Source: a virus
Taxonomy: Duplodnaviria; Heunggongvirae; Uroviricota; Caudoviricetes
Direction: 5' to 3' (one strand)
Virus record (IMG/VR): IMGVR_UViG_2877948078_000005
Location: 1-50,138 of that record
Length of the DNA stretch: 50,138 nt
How positions within the stretch are numbered: position 1 is the first letter of the stretch; each line of letters begins with the position of its first letter. The position numbers are program-made. Positions 24,001-30,000 of the stretch are shown in pieces.

Positions 24001-27000
24001 CATCCTGAAAGGTTCTGTGTTCATAAGTCGCGCGTGTGAAGCGCGTTTACTGCGGACATAAAAAAGCCCCGCATCGCGGGGCTCATTAAATGGACTTTGT
24101 GATTTGCAAAAAAATTATTTCAGGCATTGCGTCCTGATGTATTCCTGCAGGTAGTTAACCTGCGCGGTTATCTTGTCGATTCCACTTCTGAGACGGTAAT
24201 AATTGAGTTCAGCATCTGCTGTAAGTCCTGGGCTTTCTCCATCGCCCATGCTGCTGGCTCCGGTCGTTGACTTTGCACAGGTGGCGGCGACTTGCAGGCG
24301 CTTACGACCAGCAGAAACATCAGCACGGAGACTTTCGATAGTCGCATTAGCATCAGCAAGCTCCTTTGTGTATCTGGCGTCAAGTTCTGCTACATCACGT
24401 TGCCGCTTCTGCATATCATCGATGATGGATGTGGCTTTATCGCGCTGCTCTTTGTAGGCGATGGCGTTATCACGGTAATGATTCAGCCCCAGACTAAGCG
24501 CACCACAGACCACCAGCAGAATAACGGTAAACGCGGAAATAATTCGGTTTATGCTCACCCCACCAGCCCTGCCGAACTCAACGCCATCCAGGCTATGGAA
24601 AGAAAAAGAGCAACCATCATTAGCGAAAATGAAACGCCGACAATCACACAAATGGTCTTTGTCAGCGTTATGATTTTATCCGATATCATTAGCCACCACT
24701 CCATCAATCCGCCTTTGTTATTTTCCCTTTGCCTGTATCAGCCAGGACAAAATCAATCAGCAGATTCGCTTCGTTTATCAATGTGCGGATTTTTGACACA
24801 TGCGCAGCTTTAACCAATTTCCATTCGTTTAACCCTGTACCAAACAGACTGGCAATGTTTTTATCCCGTTTCATGTCAGCGCATGCCTGGTTGAGTTCTT
24901 CCATCACGCTCATTTGACGAGGATTAACGACAACCCCCTTCGTCCAGTATTCATAGAGAACATCGTCGCACTCTTCCTGATACTGGATTACCTTGTCGCG
25001 GATTTCAGGTTTAACTTTGTTTGAGTTGATGGTCTGAAGCCAGGCAGCCAGCTTACGCAGAGCAAGACAAGTCATTGTTTGCTCACCACCAGCAGAAGGT
25101 ATTATGATTTCCGTAACGCCTTTGGCAAATCGTTGTTTTAACTTAGTAAATTGTGGAGCCCAGGCCAGCCCCATCCCCTCAACAATGGGTTTCATAGGAA
25201 CATACGGTTCGCCATTATGGTTAACCACATAAAGAGAATCGCCGTGAAACGGCACGGTCATCATATTCATCGGTTATTTCCTTTTAGTGATGAACCCTGC
25301 GCACAGGAATAACCAGCCCAAAGAGGGTTAACCAGACCACTGCCGGTTATCCACCAGGGCTCATCCTGAAAGGTTCTTTGGTTTATTTACGCTTGTGCGA
25401 AGCGCAGAAATGACAAAGGCACCATTACGGTGCCTCTGCGTGAAATAATGTTCCTGACGTTATTCACTTACATTTTGCCAGTTCGCAGGATTTCTGTTAT
25501 CCGTCCGCGTTGGCCAACGTCATTTTTCAGCAAAATATTCTGCTTATCTGTCGATACCCCAGCACGCCAGCGCGCTCTCCTGGTCACGACGGGATACCTG
25601 ACCATAACAGTTATTTGAGCGGATACGGCAGTCTCTGCCACCGTCTTTAATCCACCAGCGAATCGCCTCGCATGCACCCCGGCGATCGCCTGCATTAATT
25701 CGTTTATAAAACGTCGACGGGAAACACTTACCGGGGCCAATGTTATACGGGCAGAATGACGCGATCCCCGCTTTCTGGGGTTCAGTCAGTGGCACTTTGA
25801 TGTTTTTCTCCACCCATGCCAGCGCCTTATCACGCTCAATGGCGTTAACCCAGTCGCATTTCCCCTTCGACAGCGTCATGCCAGGAATCACAGGCTTACC
25901 ATCCACCCGGGTGGCACCTCGGCAGATGGTCCAGATACCCGCACCATCACGGTATGCCGTGGTGTGGTTACCTTCTTTTTCGTCAAGAAACTGGTCGAGG
26001 ATTTCAGGCGCAGGCGCACCTGCGGCAATCAGCGCCAGAACGGCAGCCGACAGGCCGTATTTGATTTTGGTGTTCATGGATATTTATCAGGATTTATCGG
26101 TTCCGAATCCCTGGATATGTTAAGTCTTCAGCCTGCCAGTGGTGGGCACTGGCACATGTAACAAAAGAGGGATGGCTGATAACCTCAATAAGGAGAACTT
26201 AATGGAAATATCAAACCATGAACTTTTTCAACTAATTCAGGGGCTTCAGCGCGAAAACATAGCTATAAATACCGCAGCCAATTTCCTGTTCTACAACATC
26301 GTTGACATTCTGGATCAGCAAAGTGGAGACAAGAAATTCAGTGATGAGCTTAAAACCAGGTTACATAGCGAACTGAGCAAAATCACAACCTCAGGTAAAC
26401 CAGAGATTAAAGTCGCCATCAATACCCTCATGCAACCACCGGTAAGACCCATGTTTGGCAATACCAGTCCTGAGCCATTTTTGAAATAAAAATCTAAGCA
26501 GCCACTGCTAAATCATCAGAAATTTCATGAATTAGCGAGGCTGCTTTTTTTAAAGCCAGCGCCTCATAAAACGGAATGGTAGCATCTTCCCGTCGTTCAA
26601 TATCTATTTCAATATTGAACAACAGCATTGATGGAACCTGATAATTATATATACCAAGGACAACGACAACATTTTTATCCCCCATGTGGAATGATTTAAC
26701 TGTCATATCGTATTTTTTCATTTTTCACCTCAATTGTTTTCTCTTTTACTATATGCGCCATTTGAGATAAGTCAGCCCCGGCTGGATCCAGCCATCAGGC
26801 TCTTTCTTAAAGGGTGGCGTATTGAAATCACAAAGAAGAGCCTCCCGCACCGCAGCATCCCTGTCTGCACCACTGGCAAGTGCTTCAATCTCTGCCGCCA
26901 GCTGCAGATATCCCATGCAGCGACCAATGCGCTTCATCAGCCCCTGTTTTTTATTGTTCTTCAGGTAATCAATGGCAAATTCAATGAGCGTCTCACTGTG

Positions 27001-30000
27001 CTGGTGCGATGGCAGTGTTACTTTTCCATTTTCTGATATGGTGATTTTCCCGTCATCACCGGATACAACAAAGGATGGCCGGTTACACTCCCATTCCAGC
27101 TCACTGCAATTATCATTATGAATACTGAAACACTCTGCGAGATTTCTGCTCATCACTTTCCGACAATAATCGTCAAACGCAGCAAACTGCTCATCGCGGC
27201 GTTTGTTTGCATCTTCAGAAGGCATCAGCGCCGACAGTTTTTTATTCAGTTCAGCAATTTCATTTTCCAGACGACTGAAGCGCTGATTCATTTCTTCATG
27301 GTTCATCACCTACTCTCCCCGTGCCGCCTTACGCCGGTCTTCTCTGATTTTGAAATACAGGTTCGTCAGATATGTCAGCAGACCAAACAGCAGACTCCCC
27401 AGCACGCCTATTGCCGCCCACTGAGACGGGGAAACCCTGTCCAGCAACTGCAGGAACCAGTAGCCCGTTCCCACCGCTGACGTGGTGTATGACACACCTG
27501 TTGTGATTTTTTCCATCTGGTACATACCCCGTCTCCCGCAATCCGGAAGCTCACAACATGAAAAAGGCCGCCAGTGCTCCACTGACAGCCTCGTGTAGTT
27601 ACTCTGAGTGCTCAACAATTCCCTGTAAAACGTGTTGACATTAAGAATCGCTTTTGTGTAGAAAATTTACCAATATAACAATAAAACCTCACCGCAGTTG
27701 CATTTCCACCAGAAGCATGGCGCATTTCTCCCTGTGCTTACTGGTGGATTTTTTTACCCCGCAAATACCGCTGACACATATTGATAATAAGAATATTTTT
27801 CATTTAAAAACACTCACTGCACCATTTCTTCGGAGTGTCCATGGCGCTCCCCCACCAGTCGCTTACGGCAACTGGCATTTTTTAATTTCTTACCGTTATT
27901 ATTGACAACAGGAAGTGTTTTCATTAAAAAGAAGGCTCTGCACGAAAGAATCTTGCTTTTGTATTTCCATGGGTATTAGCACCGCCAGCGTCCATTCCTG
28001 TCGCTGGCGGCTTTTTTTTATCATACCGCAGTGTCTGTGCTGTTCACTTCCACCGCAATGCTGTCAATCAGCAGCGTATACGTCGCCGATTTTGATATAT
28101 CGGTCAGTTGCAGTTTGTCCACCGCCCCCGATGCCGGTGACTTCACCAGTGTGAACGCCGCTCCCCGTTTCTCATCCAGTACTGGTGTCACCTGAATGCT
28201 GTTGTTTCCGGCAAACTCAAAAGCCAGCGTGTGCCATCCGTTATCAAAGACCCCGAATGTATCCAGCTTCGCATTCGGCTTCCTGTGATGCATCGCGTTC
28301 AGGTTCGTCGTATCCGTCTGCAGGAAGAAAGACATCAGCATATCGTTACCTTCTCCTGACAGCATCACCCCCTCCGGCAGGGACGACAACTGCCAGTAAA
28401 TGCCCAGGGCAAACTGATTCGGCACCAGTGAACCCGGCAACTTAAACCGTACGCTCACACGTCCGCCCTTCTTCAGTAACTCCGCCCCCTGTCCGGCTGC
28501 ATCATGCTCCAGAAACCAGATGTGGTTTTCCGGTTTGTTCAGTTGCAGAGCCTTACCTCCCGTAGCCCCCGCATCACTGACCACCGCTTCAGCAATGTTT
28601 TTGTTAACACTGTCTCCGCCCGCCGGTTTGTGATAATAGCGCCAGCCCTGTGATGCCAGGTCTTCGCCGGATGCCAGCAGACTCATCAGGGTTCGGTTAC
28701 TGACCGGGGCTTCCGCCTCTCTCTCCGGACCTTCACCGGAAGGTACGGTGGGCTTCACCATATCAGGCTGTTTTCCGGTAATGAATTCAGCGGTTCTCCC
28801 GGCGTGCACCAGAATCGCCGTTGCCAGACGGTCGGAAATAATCCCCCGGCGTGCCCAGGTGCTGAAATGGCTCGCCCTGTCCTGTGACGTCCAGGTGGCT
28901 GAGCTGTCACGCCATTTCGAACCGTAATACCCGATACCCGGAATGTCCGGGTCTTCTTCCGGTTTGTTCGTCGGCACATTCACCCCGTTCTCATCCGTCA
29001 TGAACGGTACGAAATGGATATTCTTTTCCGTTTTGTTTTTATAACTGCCGTACACCGTCTGGTACGTGGATTCGTTCTTCTGCTTCCAGAAATACGTCGT
29101 GTCCCCGCATATCCAGGGAACACCGCCAGCAGAGCCACCAACGCACTGACCTGCCATATCCGCCAGGTCTGCACGGAATTTATCAACCAGCGCACCAAAC
29201 TGTGCGGCGTGATTTACCGGCGTACCGCCAAAATCAAATTCCCCCTGCATCCACACCACGGCAAACAGCACATTTTTCGGGTTCTTCTTCAGTGCTGCTT
29301 TTGTTCGACCGATAAGGTCCTTATACAGCGGCTTGTCCACACCCCAGCGGGTTGAATTCTCCGAGGCACCACTCGCGTCACTGTATGTGCCATCAGCTCC
29401 GGTGGTGAACGCAGAGCCACCACGACAGCACGGAACCAGCAGAATGCCCGCATTCGCCGGTATAAACGGCAGCAGTTTTTTGGCGATATGCAGCCCCTGC
29501 CCCACGGTTCCGTACTGCCCCTTTGACAGGTCCGCTTTCGGATGGTTAAGGCGGCTCATGTCCTGCACATCATGCAGACAATGGTCCGCCGGAATGATGT
29601 CGTTATATTTACAGGCGACACCGCCCGGTGTCACCGTACTGCGGCGCGCCAGCTGCTTAATACGCGGCTCCGGACGGTCATATGTCTCCGGCAGCGGAAG
29701 ACCTTCACCATACGACATACCGTTTGACTGCCCTGCCAGAACCACAACAAAGTAATACTCCGGGTCGCTGGTGGCGCTGATTACTGCACCTTCTCTACCT
29801 GTCGGCTTCACCACAACAGGTGTGCTCACATCACCTTCTGCGACAATCGCCTGAATAAGTGCTGCGCCATCATCCGTATACGAAGAAAACGGCCCGCCGT
29901 ATGGTTGCCATCCTTCACGAATTTTTTGAGCAAGTGTATCAGCAAGGTCTGACGGCGATGCCGCCCTGACCACATCGTAGTGTTTAAATGTCATAACCTC

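Follow-up and report, generated by a model that had tools for sequence, protein, structure and literature searches.

An accessory-gene slot between the pinholin and SAR endolysin genes of a lambdoid prophage, apparently shared by a resident YdfR-family gene and a portable sense/antisense cassette

The window analysed here is the whole of a 50,138-nucleotide stretch of viral DNA (Caudoviricetes; positions 1 to 50,138 of IMG/VR record IMGVR_UViG_2877948078_000005), and the element in question is the roughly 1.2 kb that separates the holin gene S from the endolysin gene R in its late operon. Three open reading frames (ORFs) lie in this gap, two in the sense of the late operon and one antisense to it. 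Read along the minus strand, the order is the Shiga toxin gene stx2, a nanS-p-like esterase gene, S, ORF-A, ORF-B, the plus-strand ORF-C, R, an antirepressor-like gene and Rz. A first-pass annotation had taken the insert for an AT-rich three-gene moron that splits a pair of lysis genes normally found side by side. The features are as follows.

28021-30048, minus strand: nanS-p-like esterase gene of the late operon
27310-27525, minus strand: S, S21-type class II pinholin, 71 aa (PF04971, 112.5 bits), the upstream boundary of the gap
26749-27306, minus strand: ORF-A, 185 aa, in-line late gene of the long YdfR family without DUF1327
26494-26721, minus strand: ORF-B, 75 aa, short stand-alone DUF1327 (YdfR N-terminal) domain
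26497-26509, minus strand: weak hairpin resembling a terminator, spanning the stop codon of ORF-B; the T-run behind it is antisense to the final codons of ORF-C
26202-26489, plus strand: ORF-C, 95 aa, orphan helical protein, convergent with ORF-B and antisense to the late operon
26128-26201, plus strand: ORF-C leader, structured and conserved (alignments, RNAalifold, covariation)
26094-26121, plus strand: putative sigma-70 promoter of ORF-C (TTATCG, 16 nt, TATGTT), read from alignments only
25544-26077, minus strand: R, signal-arrest-release (SAR) endolysin, 177 aa (PF00959, 84.4 bits), the downstream boundary of the gap

The three ORFs lie where the first-pass annotation had placed them, with the ribosome binding sites it described, and RefSeq carries the same three coding sequences on NZ_CP027310.1, named hypothetical, DUF1327 and hypothetical. 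This record holds the Stx2d prophage of E. coli 2014C-4135, to which the window is 99.985% identical over 13.2 kb, the difference being one gap and one mismatch. ORF-A starts at an ATG (27306) or a GTG (27309), 3 nt past the S stop codon (27310-27312), and its GGAG sits within the 3′ end of S. ORF-B is preceded by GAGGTG and ORF-C by AAGGAG (AAGGAGA at 26190-26196), and the stop codons of these two convergent genes are 4 bp apart. The AT-richness is also borne out: the 1.2-kb stretch has a GC content of 42.8%, as against 51.6% for the window, 54.2% for S and 55.2% for R. Within it, ORF-A (47.0%) deviates less from its flanks than ORF-B (36.4%) and ORF-C (41.0%), which together form a B-C cassette of 39.3% GC.

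We compared the gap across the 80 IMG/VR loci with holins most similar to that of the window (at least 97% identity), 71 of which have R downstream. The gap is filled in 60 of the 71 loci, by 358-1316 bp, and S and R are 1-4 bp apart in the other 11, proportions that are indicative only, the sample being ranked by holin identity and redundant. In all 60 inserts the first gene, right behind the S stop codon, is of DUF1327 type, of ORF-A type or a fusion of the two, and the equivalent region of the Qin prophage of E. coli K-12 reads essQ-ydfR-rrrQ. Since 60 of the 71 loci carry an insert and Qin has ydfR at this place, adjacency of pinholin and SAR endolysin genes, which the first-pass annotation had assumed, is not the norm for this holin class. 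The comparison with other prophage lysis regions that it had proposed finds the insert absent from 11 loci and the gap occupied in 60, and it brings to light neither a known function for the three ORFs nor a lack of conservation. Other versions of the slot are present in Stx2 phage 86 and in several Stx1a and Stx2a phages. The full A-B-C set of the window was found in no deposited phage genome, and a literature search returned nothing specific on this slot in Stx phages. The same set also occurs in stx-negative prophages, and we rejected a Stx-specific role on this ground. On the best-supported reading, the pinholin/SAR endolysin gap of lambdoid prophages is a standard slot for accessory genes, here in its occupied state, and the 1.2 kb that fill it are made of two units of different origin. 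As a phage accessory locus it is uncharacterised but of an ordinary kind.

The first unit is ORF-A, which by its sequence is a DUF1327-less version of a long YdfR protein and a usual resident of the slot. It matches phrog_1085 over positions 117-296 of 296 (E 7e-107), corresponding to the C-terminal two thirds of the long proteins of the YdfR family, and it is 78-84% identical to proteins of 287-296 aa in alignments that start at about residue 117 of these long forms. The search returned 149 homologues, every source-named one from E. coli, in forms of 185 aa, of 213 aa (with a middle insertion) and of 268-296 aa, the longest of which, named ‘YdfR family protein’, have DUF1327 at the N terminus. 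Pieces of ORF-A are present in 956 of 5426 complete E. coli genomes. A Pfam search gave no family for ORF-A, in which the DUF1327 domain is absent, and a profile search gave no relative in the PDB. Its architecture combines an N-terminal helical, coiled-coil-like part with a conserved C-terminal domain of about 100 aa. No promoter or terminator of their own was detectable for ORF-A and ORF-B, and since neither has such a promoter we take both to be in-line late genes. By analogy with lambdoid late antitermination, a Q-modified polymerase would be expected to read through the hairpin at 26497-26509. The high late-operon expression that had been attributed to all three genes would apply to ORF-A and ORF-B but not to ORF-C, which is antisense and should be opposed by late transcription.

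ORF-B belongs to an annotated family, DUF1327/YdfR, which the first-pass annotation had missed. It matches PF07041 at 35.4 bits (cut-off 25; E 1.3e-8; profile positions 3-72 of 93), and it also matches positions 3-72 of phrog_1085, the same profile that ORF-A meets further downstream. Four ORF-B-type partners from other contexts were scanned against PF07041: two score 29.9 and 31.2 bits, one reaches 21.5, below the cut-off, and one gives no match. The protein fits the setting of its family, being encoded in late-operon sense in the holin-endolysin gap of a lambdoid prophage, and the short subfamily is also met in tail operons. The full YdfR architecture of N-terminal domain plus C-terminal helix (about 100 aa) is absent, ORF-B stopping at residue 75. 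In a multiple alignment ORF-B is 23% identical to K-12 YdfR and retains the conserved family positions. For K-12 YdfR, residues 1-72 bind Rne 1-597 (RNase E) and Rng (RNase G) in two-hybrid assays, and Rne 1-598 co-purifies with Strep-YdfR, as does RNA (PMC13232886, a 2026 study). This binding is the only functional lead at the locus, and from it we infer, by analogy, that ORF-B, like K-12 YdfR, may bind both enzymes, in its case late in infection. Nearly all short DUF1327 proteins (ORF-B, at 26494-26508, and those of L086-L109) end in small aliphatic residues (LAVAA, LEAAA, LSVTA, VAAA). These ends resemble ssrA-like ClpXP degrons, and it is pure speculation that ORF-B may be unstable.

The coding status of the two small genes can be judged against a divergent E. 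albertii prophage lineage, which has the same S, ORF-A, ORF-B, ORF-C, R order and the same 4 bp between the stop codons of ORF-B and ORF-C. The E. coli and E. albertii alleles share 74% of nucleotides and 62% of amino acids in ORF-B, and 68% and 58% in ORF-C, with identical lengths and no indels. Between the alleles, the ratio of non-synonymous to synonymous substitution rates (dN/dS) amounts to 0.28 in ORF-B and 0.19 in ORF-C; the values for S and R are 0.12 and 0.05. In the five other frames of ORF-C, the ratio is 1.1-1.6 in four; the fifth gives 0.26, with in-frame stops in both alleles. Lengths are stable (74-75 aa for ORF-B, 95 aa for ORF-C) across E. coli, E. albertii, Citrobacter and further IMG/VR viral contigs, and for ORF-C in Serratia as well. 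These alignments indicate that the ORFs exceed chance expectation and that ORF-B and ORF-C are under purifying selection.

The second unit is the pair itself: judging from its distribution, ORF-B and ORF-C make up a separate portable AT-rich cassette of about 0.65 kb (roughly 26128-26745). Searching from ORF-C, we found 22 loci, 20 of which have a convergent ORF-B-like gene of 74-86 aa with a stop-to-stop gap of exactly 4 bp. The reciprocal search from ORF-B yielded 17 IMG/VR loci, each with ORF-C and each on a contig already found via ORF-C. The two loci with ORF-C and without ORF-B are of Serratia type and have it between genes resembling gpI and gpJ. Several phages of Enterobacterales carry the cassette in a lysis or tail operon: in the S-R gap (E. 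coli and E. albertii), after Rz, with the tape-measure gene on one side and tail genes on the other, between gpM-like and gpL-like tail genes, and in one other context. ORF-B is in late-operon sense and ORF-C antisense in every one of them. The cassette is present in 16 of the 5426 complete E. coli genomes, always at 99% identity or more, and these include stx-negative prophages. The moron proposed by the first-pass annotation thus survives in part: there is extra DNA relative to those relatives with S and R 1-4 bp apart, but it divides into a usual resident and a separate, rare cassette.

ORF-C matches phrog_10490 and belongs to a small family, with only seven clusters at 50% identity among 1.84 billion proteins, all of 93-110 aa. 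Its AlphaFold2 model is helical, with a predicted local distance difference test (pLDDT) score of 74 and a conserved C-terminal tail predicted to be mostly unstructured, and a Foldseek search with this model gave no PDB match. We rejected an upstream in-frame ATG, which would make ORF-C 105 aa long, as its start; in the alleles of E. albertii, Citrobacter and Serratia the short upstream ORF is either broken or in another frame. Position 26139, from which the first-pass annotation had counted, is the GTG of a longer mechanical ORF and an unlikely start for ORF-C.

Upstream of ORF-C, conservation extends over about 130 nt in every context (14 distinct sequences). According to RNAalifold, an invariant closing stem pairs TCAGCC (26128-26133) with GGCTGA (26174-26179) and encloses a hairpin (26134-26154) in which four of the eight pairs show compensatory double changes and 96.6% of the cells are paired. 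The observed covariation of the tested two-helix structure was reached by none of 500 shuffles, and the signal disappears when the partner columns are slid. The hairpin folds at -12.0 kcal/mol on the plus strand versus -8.3 on the minus strand, and the whole leader at -23.8 versus -18.2. The wobble pairs fit the plus strand only, and together with the fold energies they favour a plus-strand structure. A late, minus-strand RNA element is disfavoured: the U-G pairs turn into A-C mismatches, and the minus-strand folds are weaker. Rfam 15, searched over 25900-27700 with E values up to 1, gave no relevant match for the leader, nor did any family reach its gathering score within the 1.2-kb region. 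The -10 pattern TAnnnT of the putative ORF-C promoter is kept in all 14 distinct sequences. This putative promoter lies over the 5′ region of R, which is on the opposite strand, and an ORF-C mRNA started from it would carry the hairpin at its 5′ end.

Part of this upstream region is not peculiar to ORF-C. Among the E. coli S-R gaps there are five unrelated antisense genes just upstream of R, encoding ORF-C (95 aa) and proteins of 104 aa (orf6 of phage 86), 79-91 aa, 90 aa and 233 aa; by gap-length class, antisense cargo of this kind is present in 23 of the 60 occupied loci. The promoter-like block is common to all five cargo types, and TCAGCC plus the hairpin to four of them, while loci without antisense cargo retain only the first 55 nt or so beside R. 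No Pfam or PADLOC family was found for the cargo proteins. The four types other than ORF-C, seen at its position in the IMG/VR loci L022, L013, L007, L024 and L015, are all orphans. We also asked whether ORF-C is distantly related to the other antisense cargo proteins; with hhalign probabilities of at most 5%, homology is not demonstrable.

Taken together, these results favour a resident ORF-A and a portable B-C cassette sharing an accessory slot, with ORF-B as an RNase-binding protein and ORF-C as a protein expressed in the lysogen, a reading that, including its proposed working, we judge somewhat likelier to be right than wrong. Its anatomy is well supported; its mechanism is what we infer. 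ORF-A would be translated from the Q-antiterminated late transcript directly behind S, and ORF-A and ORF-B would be made only in lytic growth. By homology with K-12 YdfR, ORF-B would bind the catalytic half of RNase E as well as RNase G and thereby change how RNA decays late in infection. For ORF-C, expression in the lysogen is probable; there it would be transcribed from its own promoter and its mRNA stabilised by the 5′ hairpin. Because ORF-C is antisense to the late transcript, late transcription is expected to oppose it, and after induction antisense transcription through the gene would silence it. Expression of ORF-B and of ORF-C would thereby fall in opposite phases of the life cycle, and none of the three proteins would be part of the lysis machinery.

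Several observations weigh against this reading. Overproduction of YdfR altered few transcripts (PMC13232886). The transfer of RNase E binding to ORF-B is weak, because identity to YdfR is 23% and BLASTP alone yields no alignment of the two. The ORF-A homologue of E. albertii (L085-L089, 4521-5221, minus strand) has an in-frame stop in its most conserved motif (GRCMGYL*) while ORF-B and ORF-C are intact, so ORF-A is dispensable at least in that prophage. The AlphaFold2 model of ORF-A, built on a 37-sequence alignment, was discarded as unfit for a fold search (pLDDT 54; predicted template modelling score 0.27). A strict consensus scan leaves the putative ORF-C promoter below threshold, and no terminator was found behind ORF-C. 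Structure prediction and remote homology search, both suggested by the first-pass annotation, brought family assignments for ORF-A (phrog_1085) and ORF-B (DUF1327) but neither a usable model of ORF-A nor a PDB fold for ORF-C.

The strongest competitor, which we nevertheless regard as unlikely, is that ORF-B and ORF-C form a life-cycle-coupled immunity pair: ORF-C in the lysogen would exclude or abort incoming phages, or otherwise act on the host, and late ORF-B together with antisense transcription would turn ORF-C off at induction and spare the prophage. The reciprocal co-occurrence of the two genes, their fixed 4-bp geometry in unrelated operon contexts, and the constant antisense placement of ORF-C behind its own conserved leader would all suit such a pair, as would the AT-richness of the cassette. 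At least five swappable orphan cargo genes lie behind one promoter-like block, as in defence hot spots, and the Tha/Ith system offers a precedent (PMC11087260). Against this, no defence family is matched. PADLOC-DB 2.0 returned nothing meaningful for ORF-A, ORF-B or the other cargo genes, and its match of ORF-C to PDC-S51 (E 2.5e-5) was dismissed, occurring in only one of ten family members and being probably compositional. ORF-C is a helical protein of 95 aa with no enzymatic domain, two Serratia-type loci have it without ORF-B, and the interaction of the two proteins is purely assumed.

Slightly less probable still is a broader reading, in which the cassette is a portable life-cycle switch: a promoter and leader platform would drive swappable lysogen cargo (ORF-C and at least three unrelated proteins), and the short DUF1327 protein would be the lytic counterpart, neutralising ORF-C or acting on RNase E and so reprogramming the decay of RNA. 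If true, this would amount to a new accessory or immunity module of Enterobacterales prophages and a new cis-regulatory RNA motif.

We also doubt, a little more strongly, that the three proteins are accessory factors of the envelope or of lysis timing, with the pinholin or the SAR endolysin as their target. Their position between S and R, the start of ORF-A 3 nt past the S stop codon, the recurrence of YdfR-family genes in exactly this slot and a genetic screen tying ydfR to envelope integrity, as cited in PMC13232886, speak for such a role. The proteins themselves do not: a test that scores S and the SAR domain of R as membrane segments finds no transmembrane segment or export signal in ORF-A, ORF-B or ORF-C, with maximal Kyte-Doolittle values over 19 residues of 0.74, 1.37 and 1.12 versus 1.70 for S and 1.74 for the N-terminal SAR segment of R. 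Moreover, the B-C cassette also occurs in tail operons far from lysis genes, and 11 of the 71 lysis cassettes do without any insert. Searches of Pfam, PHROG, NCBIfam and PADLOC matched none of the three to a lysis or structural family, in keeping with the first-pass annotation; NCBIfam gave nothing above noise, and the three family profiles met only noise among PDB sequences (E at least 0.04).

That the stretch is decaying mosaic debris from recombination of YdfR alleles, now without function, we consider very improbable. ORF-B does lack the C-terminal helix of full-length YdfR, ORF-A lacks DUF1327 and has a stop codon in E. albertii, and the cassette is rare in E. coli; yet dN/dS values of 0.19-0.28, the absence of indels at 68-74% nucleotide identity, lengths of ORF-B and ORF-C held across genera and compensatory changes in the leader are not what debris would leave. 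A toxin-antitoxin-like addiction pair, regulated via overlapping convergent transcripts, would account for two small, convergent, strictly linked and mobile genes with no terminator between them, but is just as implausible, since no toxin-antitoxin family is matched, neither protein resembles a membrane toxin, and ORF-B, with no detectable promoter and dependent on the late operon, would be silent in the lysogen, the very state in which addiction has to work.

Other features of the prophage were seen in passing. Between the antirepressor-like gene and Rz lies a hydrophobic ORF of 49 aa (24555-24704, minus strand; hypothetical in RefSeq), another small insert in the lysis cassette. An iraM-like anti-adaptor gene (30238-30561, plus strand; RefSeq, with coordinates transferred from the near-identical record) lies between stx2B and the nanS-p esterase gene, in the opposite sense to the late operon, and a strong match to the small RNA STnc100 (30572-30784, minus strand; Rfam, 158.7 bits) lies just downstream of stx2B, in a moron region from which convergent prophage small RNAs have been described in enterohaemorrhagic E. 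coli (PMC4104026). Two tandem copies of C4 antisense RNA (82-83 bits) plus isrK Hfq-binding RNA (55-64 bits), at 39994-40182 and 40840-41027 on the minus strand, suggest a duplicated P1/P7-type c4-ant immunity region. The large terminase gene (about 20254-22181, minus strand) is flagged as frameshifted by RefSeq in the near-identical record, and because the window differs so little from that record the prophage may be packaging-defective.

In lambdoid prophages, those with Shiga toxin included, the holin-endolysin gap of pinholin-type cassettes is much used for cargo. The slot lies on the stx-bearing transcript, and its occupants are without assigned function, the one lead being the binding of YdfR to RNase E. 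If DUF1327 proteins act on RNase E late in infection, the stability of late, stx-bearing mRNA, and hence the yield of toxin, could change. The strictly linked sense/antisense pair and a leader common to unrelated cargo make the slot experimentally approachable.

Phage-encoded modulators of RNase E are known in T7 gp0.7 and phiKZ Dip, the latter binding the C-terminal scaffold of the enzyme. If ORF-B binds RNase E like YdfR, it would likewise be a phage protein placed on a host RNA-decay enzyme in lytic growth. There is no homology to gp0.7 or Dip, however; YdfR targets the catalytic N-terminal half rather than the scaffold, and is known as a binder only (PMC13232886).

Sense/antisense ‘noncontiguous operons’ that couple prophage genes to the life cycle have been described, and Tha/Ith of Staphylococcus aureus prophages resembles the B-C pair in that a gene with a promoter of its own is nested, antisense, within a phage operon, an arrangement under which the two partners would exclude each other between lysogeny and lysis (PMC11087260). 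The two systems differ in that they have no sequence relation, belong to different host clades and place the antisense gene in the lysogeny operon (Tha/Ith) or the late operon (B-C), and B-C is known from sequence alone.

Morons, a term reportedly defined by Juhala et al. in 2000, are exemplified in lambdoid phages by lambda bor and lom. The insert is moron-like in being extra DNA of deviant composition, placed between two late genes that adjoin each other in some relatives (11 of 71 loci), and ORF-C, like lambda bor, is antisense to the late operon beside the lysis genes with its own upstream control region. Unlike morons, ORF-A and ORF-B are plain late genes with no promoter-like site, and no terminator follows ORF-C, which, unlike bor and lom, is cytoplasmic and neither a lipoprotein nor an outer-membrane protein. 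Moron geometry is confined to ORF-C.

The closest counterpart is YdfR (DUF1327) of the K-12 Qin prophage. ORF-B differs from it in its length (75 versus 103 aa), in consisting of the N-terminal domain only and in its strict pairing with an antisense gene, a partner that ydfR lacks, and ORF-A differs in lacking DUF1327. Like YdfR, ORF-B is a small soluble protein encoded on the same strand as its neighbours in the gap between a class II holin gene (essQ in Qin) and a lysozyme gene (rrrQ); it scores above the family profile cut-off, and ORF-A shares homology with the C-terminal extension found in long YdfR proteins.

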